DNA of 64,000 nt from a virus (Duplodnaviria > Heunggongvirae > Uroviricota > Caudoviricetes), in the IMG/VR virus record IMGVR_UViG_2648501839_000008. One strand, given 5' to 3'. The position numbers and the translations under genes are program-made. The notes below the pieces were generated by a model. It was not told where the DNA came from. It saw nothing but the letters and a program-made list of their open reading frames with translations, and ran no database searches. The first letter of the stretch is position 1, and each line of letters opens with the position of its first letter. Shown here piece by piece: positions 1,532 through 59,399 of this stretch.

Positions 1532-1637
1532 GTTGGTTTCCTTAAAGTGGTTCATAAAATCGATTTTAAAGCGTCTGGGAAGGGGGTCTAGTGGATTCTG
1601 TAGTGATGTTCAGGTCTGGGAGTCTCTGATACAAAAC

Positions 1638-1696
1638 AGCCTGCTTCCGTATATTAATAATTAATATGTAGTTATTTATATATACAGAAGCAGGCT
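1638..1696. terminator. Long hairpin (17-bp arms around an AT-rich loop) downstream of the dam-like gene; near-identical copy at 48172-48230
   Basis: Inverted repeat AGCCTGCTTCCGTATAT ... ATATACAGAAGCAGGCT read directly from sequence. Confidence 0.5.
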
Positions 1697-1717
1697 AATT
1701 ACAGACGCCAGAGCAAA

Positions 1718-2311
1718 CTAAGCAGCCTTCTTTGATGGTCTTTTTTTCCTGATCACATTCGCAGGATCATACCCTCCCAGACTTTTCATGACGTCCAAAG
1801 GGATCTTGCTTATAGAGTGCCCAGCGTCCTGACAAAACCCTCGAAAAACAACGAGCATACTGCCACCGGGGTTGATGTTTACTTCTACCTGACCCAAATT
1901 GACGTCAGGCTCGACAAACGCAACGCGGCCACCAGACAGAATAATCGTCTCATTCGCATACTCTGTTGCACGCTCATACCACTTTGTATCGAGGGATTGA
2001 GGAATTAGCATCACTGTTGTAACTCCGCGAGCCTGCTCACGTATAGCCGCATCAATCCAGGGGGAGATTTTGGAGTAGGGTGGATTGAGGAAGGCAATTG
2101 TACCTGGCTGCCCCCATTCAGATTTCAAAGCATCGCGCTCAACGCCTATGAAAATAGGCAGCTTTGCATTGTCCTTGTTGCAGGCAACGTCAACATCAAA
2201 TGTCACTCCAAGATAACGTTGAATGGCAGAAAACAGCCAATCAGGTGTTCTCCAGAGGTCACGAAGAGAGTTGTCGCGCTTTCGCTGTTTGATTTTTTCG
2301 GCTGCAATCAT
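1718..2311 (-). CDS. dam: DNA N6-adenine methyltransferase (phage Dam-like)
   Basis: WRTPDWLF and NPPYS motifs typical of phage N6-adenine MTases; no restriction endonuclease partner in the window. Confidence 0.8.
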   Translation of the reverse strand: MIAAEKIKQRKRDNSLRDLWRTPDWLFSAIQRYLGVTFDVDVACNKDNAKLPIFIGVERDALKSEWGQPGTIAFLNPPYSKISPWIDAAIREQARGVTTVMLIPQSLDTKWYERATEYANETIILSGGRVAFVEPDVNLGQVEVNINPGGSMLVVFRGFCQDAGHSISKIPLDVMKSLGGYDPANVIRKKRPSKKAA

Positions 2312-2493
2312 CTTCTTTCTCGATAGGTAAGTGATTACCTATTTTTGCATTTGATTTTATGTATGGCAATCAAATAAAACGCGCCAGAAATGCGAACAAG
2401 AAGCTCTCTGGCGCGTTTTTGTGGTGCTGGGTATGGGTTAGCTTACCCAGCACTATAAAGCTCTCTATGGGCTTTATTTTCAGTAGGGGAACG

Positions 2494-3303
2494 TCATCCA
2501 ATAGTGTACTCCGCGACAAACTTCTTAACGATCGGTGATTCTTCGTTCAATGTTAGATTTCCACCGTCTCTAACAGCAATTCCTGTAGCTGGAAATACAG
2601 CCATCATTTGCCCAGCCTGAGTTGACGCAGTGTTAAGCGGATACGGTTTTTCTGGATTGCTCATTAAAGCAATCTTAATACTATTACTTGTAGCCTTCTT
2701 TTCTGTGAGAAGGTGTCTCATGGAAATTACCGTGTAAACACTAATATCTGGACCTCCGCTAAACCAATTAAGAAGGTTTAATATCTTATCCTTTGCTTTG
2801 ACAGGCGCGTTTTCGTAAGCGTCTAAGAAAATATCTTTTTCTAAGCCTGCTTTATTGAAAAACAAATCATCTTTATCACTTAAAGTAAAACGAGGACCTC
2901 TTGCAGTACGAGCTTTTTTATTTGTATTGCTATCATTTGACTGTTGAACTTTTAATTCATCATTAACCTCAACACACTCTTCAACCTCAATAAACCCCAA
3001 TTGTTCTGGCTCGTTTTCGGCAGATTCAACACTTTCAGCCTTAATTACGTTTATAGGCTCATGAGCTAACTCCAACTCATTTAAAGCGGAGCTGAAATCA
3101 CCTGCTTTTTCTTCATTGAACAGTTCTTCGGCAACATCATCAGAACTCATGGCTACGCCAGCATCGAGGCCGAGAAGCAGATCGTCAATATCATCAGTAT
3201 TTTCAACCTGTGCAGCTTTTTTTACTGGTTCATCAAGTGATTGCAACATGGCTGTCAGCTCATCCAGATCATCATTTGTCATTACATTTTCAACCGAACT
3301 CAT
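2494..3303 (-). CDS. Hypothetical protein with highly acidic N-terminal half
   Basis: 269-aa ORF; residues 1-120 are strongly D/E-rich. No recognisable catalytic motif. Confidence 0.6.
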   Translation of the reverse strand: MSSVENVMTNDDLDELTAMLQSLDEPVKKAAQVENTDDIDDLLLGLDAGVAMSSDDVAEELFNEEKAGDFSSALNELELAHEPINVIKAESVESAENEPEQLGFIEVEECVEVNDELKVQQSNDSNTNKKARTARGPRFTLSDKDDLFFNKAGLEKDIFLDAYENAPVKAKDKILNLLNWFSGGPDISVYTVISMRHLLTEKKATSNSIKIALMSNPEKPYPLNTASTQAGQMMAVFPATGIAVRDGGNLTLNEESPIVKKFVAEYTIG

Positions 3304-3463
3304 GTAAGTCTCCTTCTGTTTAGTTGCATTTGCGTTTCGATGGCTACATTTTGACTAAACCTATCAGGCGGAAAAGTATTAAATACAGGCAGGAAATGAT
3401 TGAAAGGCGACTGTTCTTTAAAAGAAAGCCTGCTTCAAACTCTCTTTAAAGCAGGCTTTTGTT

Positions 3464-4021
3464 TTACACAATTTCAGAGGGTAATTTAAAAAATCCGTAT
3501 TTATTACGTGCCTTAAAGAAGCATTGCATCATTAAGTTTGTGTCATATAAGGCACTATGTGCTTTGGCATGATCGTATATAAAGCCAAGAGAGAAGGCCA
3601 ATTCTTCAAGGCGAGGACGTTTACCGTCTTCTGTGGCCCACAATCCCGATAACATAGTATCTATAACGGGAACGTCTGGCAGTCTTACTCCATACCCTGA
3701 AAACTCGTGTCGAATAAATGGTATATCAAACGCTTCGCCGTTATGAGCAATCCACGCACTACATGCCCCCATATAAGCGCCAATTTCGCTGGCATGATTT
3801 GACAACAAAGGTTCAGCTGCGAGCTGTTCTAATGAAATGCCATGAACGGCTTGAGCTTTCGGATCTATGTTTCTGCGAGGGTTAAAACGCATCTCCAGAC
3901 TATCAATATGTCTCTGTGTCTCCAGTTCATAGCGGGTAATTGCGATTTCAATAATTTTATGACCAGCAAGGAAATCCAGTCCCGTAGACTCGATATCGAT
4001 GCCTGCAACAATCGTTGTCAT
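3464..4021 (-). CDS. DEDDh-family 3'-5' exonuclease (DnaQ-like)
   Basis: Exo I GIDIESTG, Exo II HNGEAFDIPF and Exo III HSALYDT motifs in the correct order. Confidence 0.8.
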   Translation of the reverse strand: MTTIVAGIDIESTGLDFLAGHKIIEIAITRYELETQRHIDSLEMRFNPRRNIDPKAQAVHGISLEQLAAEPLLSNHASEIGAYMGACSAWIAHNGEAFDIPFIRHEFSGYGVRLPDVPVIDTMLSGLWATEDGKRPRLEELAFSLGFIYDHAKAHSALYDTNLMMQCFFKARNKYGFFKLPSEIV

Positions 4022-4030
4022 CAGAACTCC

Positions 4031-4450
4031 TTACAACTTCTTAGCGCCCTTAAGTAGTGCGCTACGTACAAATTGAGCCGCTTTTTTCAAAGTTTCTTCA
4101 CTGGTTTCACAGACAATCGGATCTTTCCACTTACCTGACGCAGTGTTGAGAATATTGATTTGGTTGCTATCCAGACAAACAGAGATATAAAGCACCGTGC
4201 CACCAGCCAGCATCAAATGCATAGGAAACAGAGGCTTTTTACTGTCTTCACTGAACTGAGACATGGCGATGTTAATGGCTTCACCTACTTGTGCGCCAAC
4301 AAGCCCCTGCGCAGTTTCGAATATGGCACGAATAGCCAGGCGAGCCTCTCGATCGCTCATAAGCGACCGGGAATGTTCGTCCGCTACACGAATCAAAGCC
4401 TCTGTTGTTTTCCGATCCAGTTCATCTTCAAGCAACATTTCACTAAACAT
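4031..4450 (-). CDS. Hypothetical protein
   Basis: 139-aa ORF in operon context; no motif recognised. Confidence 0.5.
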   Translation of the reverse strand: MFSEMLLEDELDRKTTEALIRVADEHSRSLMSDREARLAIRAIFETAQGLVGAQVGEAINIAMSQFSEDSKKPLFPMHLMLAGGTVLYISVCLDSNQINILNTASGKWKDPIVCETSEETLKKAAQFVRSALLKGAKKL

Positions 4451-6043: not shown

Positions 6044-7174
6044 TCACACCGCCACTGGAACCTTGATCCACGGTAGAGGGTCATAGCCAAGAATCAGAAT
6101 ATCGTCCCATTTGAAATCATCCAGCTCAGACCATTCATGAGGGAAAATAACGACCGGATCTGAATGCTCTGGAGCCTGTCGTTTCATTAGCTCACACACA
6201 CCTTCCATGTGGTTGTTGTACAAATGCACGTCAAAGCCAAAATGTACAAATGCACCGGCCATGTGACCCGTAATCTTCGCGAGAAAATGAGTGAGAATGC
6301 CATAGCCAGCAATATTGAATGGCATACCAACAAAAGTGTCTACGCTACGCTGTACGAGGCAGGAGTTGAGGATGCGTTTGGGGATTCCAAGTTCATCCAG
6401 TTCAGTTTCAGTAACACTGCCGTCCATCTCCAGATCGTATAGCATCTTGGTGTAGATAGACTCATAACCGAGGCGACTGTGTTGAAGACCAATGTCAGTT
6501 GCCATCGTTAAACGGGTTTCAAAATCAAGCTCACGACTCCACAAAGAGAAGACAAAGTGGCAAGGTGGCAGTTTCATATCCTCAAGCTCGCCTACGTTCC
6601 ATGCGTTAAGCATGATACGACGATCGGTGGGGTTCGTGCGCAGTGTATCGACAATACGCTGTAGCTGATCGATTTCACGGGACAGCACTACGCGATCTTC
6701 ACTGATACCCAGGTATCCCTCGACTTTGTACCCGCGTTCACGGAAAGTATCGATCTTGCTCAGATATTCACTATGGCTCACGATGCGGGTATCTTCCCAT
6801 CGACGCCACTGCTTACCGTAAACCGGCCCCAAATCGCCATTCTCATCGGCCCATGCATCCCAAATCTTAACGCCGTTATCCTTGAGAAATTGGATGTTGC
6901 CCGTGCCTTTCAGATACCACTCAAGTTCGACAAGCAGTGGCTTAAGATTTACCGCCTTTCCAGAAATAAGCGGCACAGTCCCACCAGTAAGCATGTAGTA
7001 AGAGGGAACGTAGCAGGTGCTTAAAGTACCAGTGCCTGTGCGATCATCAGCCTGCACGCCGCTTTTAAGCACCGTCTCAATAACTTTTGCATACGATGCG
7101 TTTGTTACCTGACCGTTCGTATGCTCACGATTCAAAAGGAGTGACACAAAAACCTCACAAAGATAAGTAATCAC
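6044..7174 (-). CDS. thyA: Thymidylate synthase with two internal insertions
   Basis: DRTGTGT, WNV.ELEDM.LPPCH (catalytic Cys) and DVHLYNNH motifs. The 7174 start is GTG with no RBS; an alternative GTG at 7147 has GAGGT upstream. Confidence 0.9.
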   Translation of the reverse strand: MITYLCEVFVSLLLNREHTNGQVTNASYAKVIETVLKSGVQADDRTGTGTLSTCYVPSYYMLTGGTVPLISGKAVNLKPLLVELEWYLKGTGNIQFLKDNGVKIWDAWADENGDLGPVYGKQWRRWEDTRIVSHSEYLSKIDTFRERGYKVEGYLGISEDRVVLSREIDQLQRIVDTLRTNPTDRRIMLNAWNVGELEDMKLPPCHFVFSLWSRELDFETRLTMATDIGLQHSRLGYESIYTKMLYDLEMDGSVTETELDELGIPKRILNSCLVQRSVDTFVGMPFNIAGYGILTHFLAKITGHMAGAFVHFGFDVHLYNNHMEGVCELMKRQAPEHSDPVVIFPHEWSELDDFKWDDILILGYDPLPWIKVPVAV

Positions 7175-7318
7175 TTATTCATTAAGTGAGTTTACATTTA
7201 TTGAGGGAACAAGGCCAGATAGATAAAAAAATGGTGGCCATAGGCCACCAAAAACGAATAGTTGTTTCAGAAATTTAACGCGCCAACGCAATATACACAG
7301 ATAGATAACTACCTACAA

Positions 7319-16446: not shown

Positions 16447-16661
16447 GTGTTTTTCCTTTGTGGTTATTTTGATACAAATTTTAAGAGCAATGAGAAGGTA
16501 AACAACTATGCATAACGGTATGTTAGGAATGAAACGAGCGACTTAATATACAAAATTTATAAGTAAGTATATACCTATTTATTGTGACGCAACTTTGCTT
16601 GTCTGTATGACTAAAAATAAGACAGGATCACTGTAGAACGCTATGAGAGCTATTTTGAGGA

Positions 16662-16700: not shown

Positions 16701-17345
16701 TTACAGCGCGTCAGTGGGCTTTTTACGCGCTGCGTTTATGCTTATGACGCCAGCTTTTGGACGTGGGTCAACAAGGTTAAGCTCTTCTTCACTGTGGTAT
16801 TCGAGGTCGAACTCACGTTTTACATGTCTGATGTAGATTGCGGTGAGCTGGCTATCTTTGGTCAGGAAGTGTCCGTAGGATTTACGGATCACTTCTTCTA
16901 CCTTTTCGAGTTTCTCACCACCCATACAGAGATGATTAAACCGGCTGTGTTTACGCAACATTTCGTCTACTGGACCTGAGTAAATTTTGTCTACTTTCCC
17001 AAAACGGATGATTTTCCCTGTGTCTGCGGATACAAGGCAAATCAGCTTGTCTGGTGATAAACGATCTCGCCACGTCACACCTGAACGGAGTGTGTTGAAG
17101 TAGGGGGCATCCAATCCGATGATCGGTTTACGAAATGCGAGCAATGGAACGTACCTGATGCAACTGTTTAAATGAAAATTCACACCAGCCTTATCAAGTT
17201 TAATTCTGGTTTCGTAGATCGGGCACTTCGCCGCTATACCGCAGATGTCACAAAGCAACTTCTGCTTATTCAGGTTGGAATTTGATTCGATAGTGTAGGA
17301 GCCGTCTTCAAGACGACGAACCCAGCGCGTGCGTTTTAGATCCAT
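16701..17345 (-). CDS. Hypothetical protein
   Basis: 214-aa ORF, Cys-containing; function unknown. Confidence 0.55.
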   Translation of the reverse strand: MDLKRTRWVRRLEDGSYTIESNSNLNKQKLLCDICGIAAKCPIYETRIKLDKAGVNFHLNSCIRYVPLLAFRKPIIGLDAPYFNTLRSGVTWRDRLSPDKLICLVSADTGKIIRFGKVDKIYSGPVDEMLRKHSRFNHLCMGGEKLEKVEEVIRKSYGHFLTKDSQLTAIYIRHVKREFDLEYHSEEELNLVDPRPKAGVISINAARKKPTDAL

Positions 17346-17423
17346 ATGTCATTTTTCTGTGATTGTTAGCCGAGGCAACGATAACCCACTAGGTGCGCCG
17401 AAGGTAGTAAATGCCTGTTTTAA

Positions 17424-17510
17424 TTATTCACATATCCACAGGATAGATCCTAATAAAGAGATCCATAGATAGATCCTTGTATAGATCAAATAAGATCCCC
17501 GATCGCTGTA
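17424..17510. promoter_or_regulatory. Origin-like region: two tandem DnaA boxes followed by a cluster of about six GATC sites
   Basis: TTATTCACA (17424-17432) and ATATCCACA (17432-17440) match the DnaA box TTATNCACA; GATC recurs about six times over the next 70 bp. Confidence 0.6.
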
Positions 17511-17544
17511 AGCCGCGCCACGACTGGTCTGAAGCCATGTTCAT

Positions 17545-17646
17545 GTATGCTGCCAGCGGTAATTGATAGTCTGTCAACGGTTCGCCGTATGCTGCCAACT
17601 GTTTTTGGTATGCTGCCAGCGGCAAATCAAGTATGCTGTCAGCGGT
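17545..17646 (+). repeat. Upstream iteron set: four direct 16-bp repeats
   Basis: Copies of GTATGCTG(C/T)CAGCGGT at 17545, 17587 (degenerate), 17608 and 17631, all in one orientation. Confidence 0.85.
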
Positions 17647-17666
17647 TGAATGACAAAGGTGTCCAC

Positions 17667-18761
17667 ATGTCCACAAAAAATAAAAAAGGTAAAAATAACA
17701 AAGAAGTAGAAGATAATCTCGACAACTTTGAAGAAGGTTCCCTTGAATTGTACACAGGGGAACTTGTCCCTAATAGCAACAATACAGTCCAACCAATTGC
17801 GTTGATGCGGCTGGGGTTGTTCGTGCCCACGCTCAAGGGGACAAAATACAGCAAGCGTAACAAGCCAAATGAGATCGATGCTTCAAAGGAGCTTGTTCAG
17901 CTCGAAGTAGCCCGTTCTGAAGGCTATTCCGATATCAAGATAACCGGTCCTCGTCTCGACATGGATCATGATTTCAAAACGTGGGTGGGCGTTGTGCGTT
18001 CGCTGGCAGAATACGGCGAACCTAACGGTCGTGTCGAGTTAAGCATCACGAAATTTGCGAAGTTTTGTGGCTATCCATCGTCACAGATCCGCAAAACACT
18101 CCGCGACCGGCTTACAAACAGTCTTTTGAAGATCATGCGTACAACTCTGTCTTTCCAGAGAACGTATGAAGAAAAGAACGTCGACGGCTCTAACAAGATC
18201 TCGCTTCTGATGGTGCACCTCATCAATAGCGTGGACTACAACGAGCAGAAAGATACGGTGGTGTTCTATGCAGAACCGAAGCTGGCCGAACTATATCGCT
18301 TTGACCATAAGGTTCTTTTGCAGTTAAAGGTTATCAATAAGCTACCACGCAAAGAAACAGCACAGGCTCTGTACACCTTCATCGAAAGTCTTCCAACCAA
18401 GCCTGCGCCGGTATCGCTTGCTCGATTGCGTGCGCGACTCAATTTGAGTAGCAGGAATGTCAGCTCGCAGAATCAGACTATACGTAACGGCTTAAAAGCT
18501 CTCCAAGATTTGGGCTATCTCGAATACAGCGAGATTAAGCGTGGGCGGTCGATCTATATCCAGATTCACAGCCGCAATCCAAAACTCAAAGTCGCACCGC
18601 CAAAACCTGAAGACATCGAACCCAAAAAACCAGATGAGAAAGCTGGGGAAATTGATGCCAAACAGAACATTATCAACAAGATAACCGAACTTTCGCAGAA
18701 TTTGACGCCTGAAAATATCAAGATGATTGAGATCCTTTCCAATAGTCTCAAACTGCTTTGA
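17667..18761 (+). CDS. repA: Plasmid replication initiator RepA (P1 RepA-like)
   Basis: NNTVQPIALMRLGLFVP, ITGPRLDMDHDFKTW and YTFIESLP match P1 RepA as recalled. Start set at ATG 17667; the ORF-track start at 17547 would translate the iterons. Confidence 0.85.
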   Translation: MSTKNKKGKNNKEVEDNLDNFEEGSLELYTGELVPNSNNTVQPIALMRLGLFVPTLKGTKYSKRNKPNEIDASKELVQLEVARSEGYSDIKITGPRLDMDHDFKTWVGVVRSLAEYGEPNGRVELSITKFAKFCGYPSSQIRKTLRDRLTNSLLKIMRTTLSFQRTYEEKNVDGSNKISLLMVHLINSVDYNEQKDTVVFYAEPKLAELYRFDHKVLLQLKVINKLPRKETAQALYTFIESLPTKPAPVSLARLRARLNLSSRNVSSQNQTIRNGLKALQDLGYLEYSEIKRGRSIYIQIHSRNPKLKVAPPKPEDIEPKKPDEKAGEIDAKQNIINKITELSQNLTPENIKMIEILSNSLKLL

Positions 18762-21986: not shown

Positions 21987-22053
21987 GTGTTTTCCTATGT
22001 GGTTGTTATGCGAAAATAATAAGTAAGTACTTATATATTTTCAAGAGATAAAA

Positions 22054-36945: not shown

Positions 36946-37119
36946 TGTTACCTCATAGAATTGATATGCAACTTTACTTACAAAGAAGATAGGTATGTGC
37001 ATACTTATCATTGCAGTCTGCATTATAAAGCTATTAAAGCCTCGATCAATCTATTAATTAAGGCATTGTTTGGTTAACATTACCCTAATATTTTATAGTT
37101 AGTAGAGTGAAATACATAC

Positions 37120-53932: not shown

Positions 53933-54001
53933 GAAAAGTCAAATCGGGATGGCGGATTTATATCACATTTCACCTTCTTGTTGTAGGTGTGTACTTACTT
54001 A

Positions 54002-59306: not shown

Positions 59307-59399
59307 GTTGAATATGCTCCTTGATTTGGTGGGCTATCCTTGCCCACCATTAAGTAAGTACATACTTATTTTTACCGATATAAATATTTTTTTCTACCA

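Follow-up and report, generated by a model that had tools for sequence, protein, structure and literature searches.

Does a DNA methyltransferase gene lying beside a gene for a strongly acidic protein mark a locus that defends viral DNA against its hosts, or are these neighbours with separate functions? The question is raised by positions 1718 to 3303 of a 64,000-nucleotide stretch of DNA from a virus of the Caudoviricetes (IMG/VR record IMGVR_UViG_2648501839_000008; the whole stretch is hereafter the window). A preliminary description, made from the letters alone, had read the acidic protein as a DNA-mimic anti-restriction protein which, together with the methyltransferase and a nearby DEDDh exonuclease, would form an anti-defence cluster. 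Our analysis tips the balance, if only modestly, towards two unrelated and separately terminated genes within a replication and nucleotide-metabolism module, one encoding an orphan Dam-family methylase and the other an acidic winged-helix adaptor or regulator, not a free-standing DNA mimic. The features on which the argument first turns are these:

1718..2311, minus strand: orphan phage Dam-family N6-adenine DNA methyltransferase, 197 residues (PF05869, TIGR01712, phrog_111, PADLOC oMTase)
2494..3303, minus strand: acidic-arm winged-helix protein, 269 residues, with a strong AAGGAG ribosome-binding site (open reading frame; phrog_5235)
2929..3303, minus strand: acidic N-terminal arm of this protein, residues 1-125 (from charge, prediction confidence and conservation)
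3229..3276, minus strand: amphipathic acidic helix motif DDLDELTAMLQSLDE, residues ~10-25 (conserved; prediction confidence ~80)
2497..2886, minus strand: predicted C-terminal winged-helix domain, residues ~140-269
3464..4021, minus strand: DnaQ/epsilon-like DEDDh 3'-5' exonuclease, 185 residues (PF00929, phrog_192)

The extreme acidity claimed for the N-terminal half of the 269-residue protein is borne out, residues 1-125 having 35 aspartates or glutamates against 5 lysines or arginines (net charge -30, pI 4.05); residues 136-269 have a net charge of 0. The protein falls in phrog_5235 (E 2e-148) and its C-terminal part also matches phrog_3932, both annotated 'unknown function'. It has no sequence match in Pfam, NCBIfam, PADLOC or the PDB, and 62 diverse members of its family match no Pfam family. 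AlphaFold2 was run twice, with 27 close homologues and then with the 62 diverse ones, and gave the same picture each time. Residues ~140-269 are predicted with a per-residue confidence (pLDDT) above 90, reaching 95-98 with the deeper alignment, as a three-helix core with a β-hairpin wing and flanking helices, i.e. a winged helix. Residues 1-135 score 45-66 with both alignments, apart from a helix at ~10-31 with a value of ~80, and the arm is accordingly predicted to be mostly disordered. The best structural matches to the protein are dimeric operator-binding repressors, Fur, PerR, MecI, ArsR and MarR. Identity to these winged-helix regulators (the N-domains of Fur and PerR, MecI/BlaI, ArsR and MarR) is only 4-17%, and unlike them the acidic protein lacks a metal-binding or sensor domain, and has additional helices at 146-165 and 257-266, an acidic arm, and no Pfam model.

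The two halves of the protein differ in conservation as they do in charge. Among close homologues the C-terminal half aligns without gaps at a median identity of 75%, against 39% and many indels for the N-terminal half, in which three islands are nevertheless kept (residues 12-25, DLDELTAMLQSLDE; residues 39-47, IDDLLxGLD; and residues 68-79). Fifty-five close homologues, all labelled 'hypothetical', are carried on contigs of ~105-115 kb. Searched more widely, a profile of the C-terminal domain recovers 652 clusters at 50% identity, nearly all of them proteins of 220-340 residues with the domain at the C-terminus, and many family members have a stretch rich in lysine, alanine and proline between arm and domain. 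A further profile search, of a word-indexed database, yielded just 7 fragments of distant homologues, none of them named. The N-terminal region has a net charge of -10 or lower in 88% of 136 distant family representatives (median -19), and we conclude from this that the acidity of the arm has been selected and is not due to chance. A motif of the D-x-L-D-A-L-L type occurs within the first 30 residues of 44 of 131 distant members, compared with 6.6 in shuffled sequences. Two readings of the protein were tried and dropped. This N-terminal motif bears some resemblance to β-clamp-binding or FliM/CheY-type 'EIDALL' motifs, but the key glutamine is absent; a kleisin-like protein was suggested by weak, generic matches to MukE/F and Nse only, and there is no SMC gene nearby.

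That the acidic protein is a DNA mimic of the Ocr/ArdA type, acting with the methylase and the exonuclease in an anti-defence cluster, we consider very unlikely, although part of the evidence speaks for it. With a net charge of -30 over 125 residues, the arm (35 acidic and 5 basic) is close in composition to Ocr (34 acidic and 6 basic among 116; PMC3439906), and the rapid evolution of the N-terminal half could reflect an arms race. Strong negative charge is thus present, but membership of a known mimic family and, as far as prediction goes, a compact fold bearing an array of carboxylates are not. The protein matches neither Ocr nor ArdA nor any Pfam, NCBIfam or PADLOC model, and has no sequence or fold similarity to T7 Ocr or ArdA. 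Structure prediction, which the preliminary description had put forward as a way to reveal the charge patterning of a DNA mimic, gave instead an arm without a confident tertiary fold (pLDDT 45-66), and no mimic stands among the structural matches. Known DNA mimics have a compact build and depend on where their carboxylates are placed, and an arm rich in indels, widely varying in length and predicted to be mostly disordered is a poor fit to a fixed array of charges. The arm is, moreover, fused to a conserved winged-helix domain, and the gene lies in a replication module, also in lytic phages such as RHEph10, unlike those of T7 Ocr and ArdA, which belong to the genes expressed first. That the arm nevertheless acts like a mimic, perhaps as a tethered decoy in the vicinity of phage DNA, has a low probability.

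The second half of the same proposal, that the three genes form a cluster, depends on their neighbourhood. The window from 1200 to 4500 matches the Escherichia phages PhiR41_1, Cyrano and CMS-2020a (~108 kb each) over its full length at 98-99% identity. These annotated twins carry tail and lysis genes together with ParA, toxin-antitoxin pairs and RepA, and a replication set comprising the DNA polymerase III (Pol III) alpha subunit, helicase, primase, ligase, a gp32-like single-stranded DNA-binding protein (SSB), UvsY, RecA and SbcCD, an annotation by which the element is classed as an SSU5-like phage-plasmid. SSU5 itself has the same local gene order as the window. All three genes lie on the minus strand and would be transcribed in the order exonuclease, acidic protein, methyltransferase. 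The DEDDh exonuclease noted in the preliminary description is present, but it is not 'downstream', nor is the methylase 'followed by' the acidic gene, as the direction of transcription is the reverse of that assumed.

Within SSU5-like elements the arrangement is stable. The order exonuclease, acidic gene, methylase, 84-residue open reading frame and RNase H is kept in 78 SSU5-like viral contigs, and among the SSU5-like loci the methylase is present in all 76 that were eligible and the exonuclease in 74 of 75. That the methylase is the next gene in every one of those 76 loci favours an anti-defence cluster, as does the element's avoidance of restriction palindromes such as AGCGCT, GAGCTC and GAATTC. 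A different picture emerges from 39 distant loci (28-48% identity), sampled in cultured phages and in viral and metagenomic contigs. In 35 of them the acidic gene is preceded, on its own strand, by a DnaQ-like exonuclease (of the remaining four, three offer less than 1.5 kb of upstream sequence and L110 ~4.2 kb), whereas a Dam homologue was found in the sampled flanks of none. An AAA_28 kinase is present in 20 of the 39 and a thymidylate synthase in 13, and one metagenomic contig has, in succession, thymidylate synthase, MazG, kinase, a 139-residue gene, the exonuclease, one further gene and the acidic winged-helix gene. The lytic Rhizobium phage RHEph10 has the acidic gene 23 bp after the exonuclease, and nickie and BUCTxx99 are similar. 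In a phage collection the acidic family is found in 30 records and this exonuclease subfamily in 31, the same 30 plus Xanthomonas phage JGB6. All are of 103-122 kb, and the shared 30 belong to SSU5-like phages, Pseudomonas Nickievirus, Rhizobium RHEph10-like phages and Stenotrophomonas phages. To judge from these records, the acidic family and the exonuclease subfamily together mark one large clade, in which lytic phages stand beside temperate phage-plasmids. This co-distribution, and the presence of the exonuclease in 35 of 39 loci as against Dam in none, argue that the acidic gene belongs with the exonuclease and the nucleotide-metabolism module. By the same comparison the methylase would be a later neighbour of the acidic gene, present only in the SSU5-like branch. 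In five SSU5-like loci (L043, L044, L049, L051 and L052) an insertion of ~1 kb widens the gap between acidic gene and methylase from 188 to ~1257 bp.

The window exonuclease fits such a module. It matches RNase_T (PF00929) with an E-value of 1.1e-20 and falls in phrog_192, DNA polymerase exonuclease subunit, and its residues D9, E11, D99, H155 and D160 are invariant in 25 homologues, which places it in the DEDDh group. It does not score as a true Pol III epsilon subunit, reaching 71 bits against NCBIfam equivalog cut-offs of 196-222, and with only 185 residues it consists of the catalytic domain alone. Around it are genes for thymidylate synthase, dihydrofolate reductase, a kinase and ribonucleotide reductase, and the genome has its own Pol III alpha. 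Directly upstream lies a further small gene:

4031..4450, minus strand: protein of 139 residues, of unknown function (phrog_5373)

In the window this gene is 9 bp from that of the exonuclease. Genes at the same position in the distant loci L085, L083 and L086 encode 139, 139 and 112 residues, and in two of these loci (L085, 6142-7175; L083, 1115-2127) the gene of the same size, ~139 residues, overlaps the exonuclease gene. The 139-residue protein may be a partner subunit of the exonuclease.

The intergenic sequences also separate the three genes from each other, as each gene is followed by a hairpin of its own:

3424..3459, minus strand: terminator-like hairpin followed by UUUCUUUU, after the exonuclease gene (-20.9 kcal/mol, z -3.9; inverted repeat I2)
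2380..2415, minus strand: terminator-like hairpin followed by GUUUUAUUU, after the acidic gene (-20.6 kcal/mol, z -5.1; inverted repeat I14)
1637..1697, minus strand: long hairpin followed by GUUUUGU, after the methylase gene (-29 kcal/mol, z -4.8; inverted repeat I4)
2341..2369, minus strand: candidate sigma-70-like promoter for the methylase gene, TTGCCA-17-AAAAAT with TG (9/12 in a consensus scan; weak when taken alone)

Because each of the three genes ends in its own predicted hairpin and run of T, we take the exonuclease, acidic and methylase genes to be separate units. A three-gene anti-defence cluster is thus poorly compatible both with these hairpins and with the linkage of the acidic gene to the exonuclease in 35 of the 39 distant loci and to the methylase in none. 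The hairpins after the methylase (1635-1697) and after the exonuclease (3419-3460) share a stem core, AAGCCTGCTT / AAGCAGGCTT (repeat families D13 and I22). Iterons or an origin in or beside the acidic gene, as in lambda O, were looked for and discarded, since between 800 and 4600 there are no meaningful direct, inverted or tandem repeats besides the terminators.

If the acidic protein is not a mimic, its resemblance to operator-binding repressors raises the possibility that it is a phage transcription factor, of which a dimer would bind the palindrome TAAGTA-N6-TACTTA while the arm contacts host RNA polymerase, either to activate transcription or in imitation of sigma region 1.1. We hold this to be rather unlikely, though its appeal comes from the repeated sequence itself, one copy of which stands before the methylase gene:

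2324..2341, no strand assigned: 18-bp palindrome TAGGTAA-N4-TTACCTA, 12 nt upstream of the methylase ATG, a copy of a repeated operator-like motif

This copy follows the promoter-like site of the methylase gene and precedes its ribosome-binding site. Allowing up to 2 mismatches, TAAGTA-N6-TACTTA has 18 matches in the window where 2.24 +/- 1.41 are expected, and it is often extended to GATAAGTAAGT...ACTTACTTATC. Besides that at 2324-2341, copies are found at 111-128, 7164-7181, 16560-16581, 22020-22041, 36990-37007, 39978-39995, 43500-43517, 48070-48087, 53984-54001 and 59351-59372, and of those whose context was inspected most immediately precede a gene. Distant loci with the acidic gene contain the motif as well, even where G+C is 57-64% (22 sites, 2.3 expected). 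Searching viral contigs for exact copies of the strict form TAAGTAAGNNNNCTTACTTA was uninformative, with only 4 matches. The motif looks like the operator of a regulon conserved across the clade, and since many other promoters of the element have this palindrome too, the methylase would appear to belong to a co-regulated set of genes.

A transcription factor of this kind would account for the over-representation of the palindrome close to promoters, that of the methylase included, for its presence in the distant loci, and for its position just after the winged-helix gene in L103, L119, L112 and the window. The dimeric repressors among the best structural matches, and the invariance or near-invariance of T225, Q229 and Q232 in the presumed recognition helix, which a conserved DNA target would lead one to expect, point the same way. 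Against this, the presence of the palindrome is uncorrelated with the sequence of the recognition helix, and many loci that carry the gene, including those of nickie, RHEph10 and BUCTxx99, have no palindrome within 12-16 kb. The element encodes other candidate binders, namely a putative repressor, a small regulator and a Cra-like protein, and as all the loci were picked for carrying the acidic gene, the weight of the co-occurrence is limited.

A winged helix next to a basic linker would also suit an abundant DNA-coating or nucleoid-associated phage protein, resembling a linker histone, with an arm that keeps the protein soluble or displaces host DNA-binding proteins. The lysine-, alanine- and proline-rich stretch between arm and domain in many members, and the strong AAGGAG ribosome-binding site, are what would be expected of such a protein. 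However, a net positive charge is missing from the winged-helix domain, the window protein has only a very short basic linker, and H1/H5 are matched no better than many other winged helices, so that we give this explanation little chance of being correct.

We return to the reading favoured at the outset, two unrelated genes, and to what each of them would do. The acidic protein is most likely, by its predicted architecture and its neighbours, a DNA-tethered adaptor or regulator of the replication module. Its winged helix would anchor it to DNA or to a conserved partner, while the short motifs of the arm would bring in a partner from replication or transcription. By folding back on the winged helix, the arm may in addition serve as an intramolecular DNA mimic and so modulate binding. 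The arm is read as recruiting or auto-regulatory because it has no confident fold, varies in length and sequence, conserves short motifs only, is attached to a winged helix and is encoded in a replication module. Acidic disordered regions are known to recruit partners or to inhibit the DNA-binding domain of the same protein (PMC7145534 for SSB, PMC9687289 for p53). Like E. coli SSB with its tip, T4 gp32, T7 gp2.5 and p53, the protein would combine a domain of DNA-binding type with an acidic disordered region containing short motifs, and its gene lies among replication genes. The likeness is one of analogy only, as the folded domain is a winged helix and not an oligonucleotide/oligosaccharide-binding (OB) fold, and the acidic region is N-terminal and ~125 residues long.

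The methylase gene is far closer to known systems. As the preliminary description stated, it is Dam-like and without a restriction partner. The protein scores 129.3 bits (E 1.5e-37) against the Pfam model 'Dam' (PF05869), for which the curated cut-off is 28.1, and 112.5 bits against TIGR01712 (phage_N6A_met; cut-off 97.05), both above the limits for membership. It falls in phrog_111, DNA methyltransferase, is labelled 'Adenine methyltransferase' in phage Cyrano, and finds its best PADLOC models in 'oMTase, orphan methyltransferase'. The catalytic motif is plainly readable:

2075..2086, minus strand: codons for NPPY, residues 76-79, catalytic motif IV of N6-adenine methyltransferases (read from the translation)

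This NPPY agrees with the (D/N)PP(Y/F) pattern of motif IV. Neither the neighbouring proteins, searched with Pfam, PHROGs, NCBIfam and PADLOC, nor the annotation of the corresponding region of the twin genome Cyrano includes a restriction-type nuclease, and judged on these two the methylase would be an orphan. Its Dam family is represented in 1254 phage records of many kinds, including Stx-converting and T1-like phages, with whose orphan methylases it shares the family cut-offs, NPPY, small size and want of a partner nuclease; nothing notable sets it apart, save that the promoter region of the window gene bears the element-specific palindrome. By these family assignments it is an ordinary member of a very common orphan phage family, and its kind is already known.

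A role in self-protection or in methylation of an origin, as proposed in the preliminary description, is reasonable for such an enzyme. Its most likely substrate is the element's own DNA, in which it would methylate adenines, probably at GATC by analogy with characterised members of the family. Methylation would protect that DNA, in new hosts, from restriction enzymes blocked by the mark, and would keep Dam-dependent sites methylated, chief among them those of a plasmid origin found elsewhere in the window:

17413..17534, plus strand: core of a P1/P7-type plasmid origin, oriR, with tandem DnaA boxes and GATC heptamers (similarity to P1/P7 oriR)

Seven GATC sites fall within 163 bp here (17339-17501), where 0.83 would be expected per 200 bp, and they take the form of AGATCC-type heptamers beside the tandem DnaA boxes. 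The origin is directly upstream of a Rep3-type repA (17547-18761, with a Rep3_N domain). The region is 77-83% identical in DNA sequence to the oriR of P1 and P7, whose annotation lists a DnaA box, RepA iterons and five Dam sites, and shares with it the DnaA boxes, the GATC heptamers and the adjacent Rep3-type repA. The oriR is therefore best described as a candidate target of adenine methylation. Replication of the P1 plasmid has been reported to need methylated DNA (Abeles & Austin 1987, as listed in PMC2865523), and with a P1-type, GATC-rich oriR in the element, origin methylation becomes plausible if the enzyme targets GATC. The origin lies 15 kb from the methylase and acidic genes, and the link to the element's own methylase is one that we infer. 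Across the window GATC is not avoided (266 sites, 321 expected), which is compatible with GATC methylation without being diagnostic of it.

Other short palindromes are strongly avoided over the whole window, among them AGCGCT (0 against 10.7 expected), GAGCTC (0 against 11.8), GGCGCC (0 against 9.6), CCATGG (0 against 8.7) and GAATTC (1 against 10.1), and CTAG is low at 40 against 93 expected. Avoidance of many 6-bp palindromes, from which GATC is exempt, suggests a passive escape from restriction.

Several points weigh against the interpretation we have given, beginning with the Ocr-like composition of the arm. A charge-hydropathy plot, tried as a test of disorder, proved non-discriminating, as an Ocr sequence falls on the same side, and low AlphaFold confidence is for this reason the main argument against a folded mimic. 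DNA binding by the winged-helix domain is putative: the net charge of the domain is ~0, its best-conserved residues, on the putative recognition helix, are polar (T225, S227, Q229, Q232), and winged helices can bind proteins as well. All named homologues of the family are annotated 'hypothetical protein'. The link to the exonuclease could be a gene order inherited within one clade and not a functional coupling. For the methylase, the specificity for GATC is putative and drawn from analogy only, and enterobacterial hosts already possess Dam, so that a role in origin methylation may be redundant.

In a wider and more speculative reading, which we think improbable though worth stating, the acidic-arm winged-helix family would represent an undescribed class of factor, specific to phages whose replication relies on a DnaE-type polymerase together with a stand-alone DnaQ-type exonuclease. 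The protein would be tethered to DNA or to the replisome, and its long polyanionic arm, bearing the conserved amphipathic helix motifs, would organise the replisome or redirect the host polymerase, or else act as a tethered DNA decoy that shields replicating DNA from DNA-binding defence proteins of the host.

SSU5-like phage-plasmids are common in clinical Enterobacteriaceae and are able to carry resistance genes (PMC9600943, PMC7969092). Sorting their core replication factors from anti-defence cargo makes such elements easier to read. The palindrome and the P1-type, GATC-rich origin offer concrete handles on how the element is regulated, and the acidic winged-helix protein, a conserved and wholly unannotated hallmark of a clade of ~110-kb phages, is a good first target for functional study.

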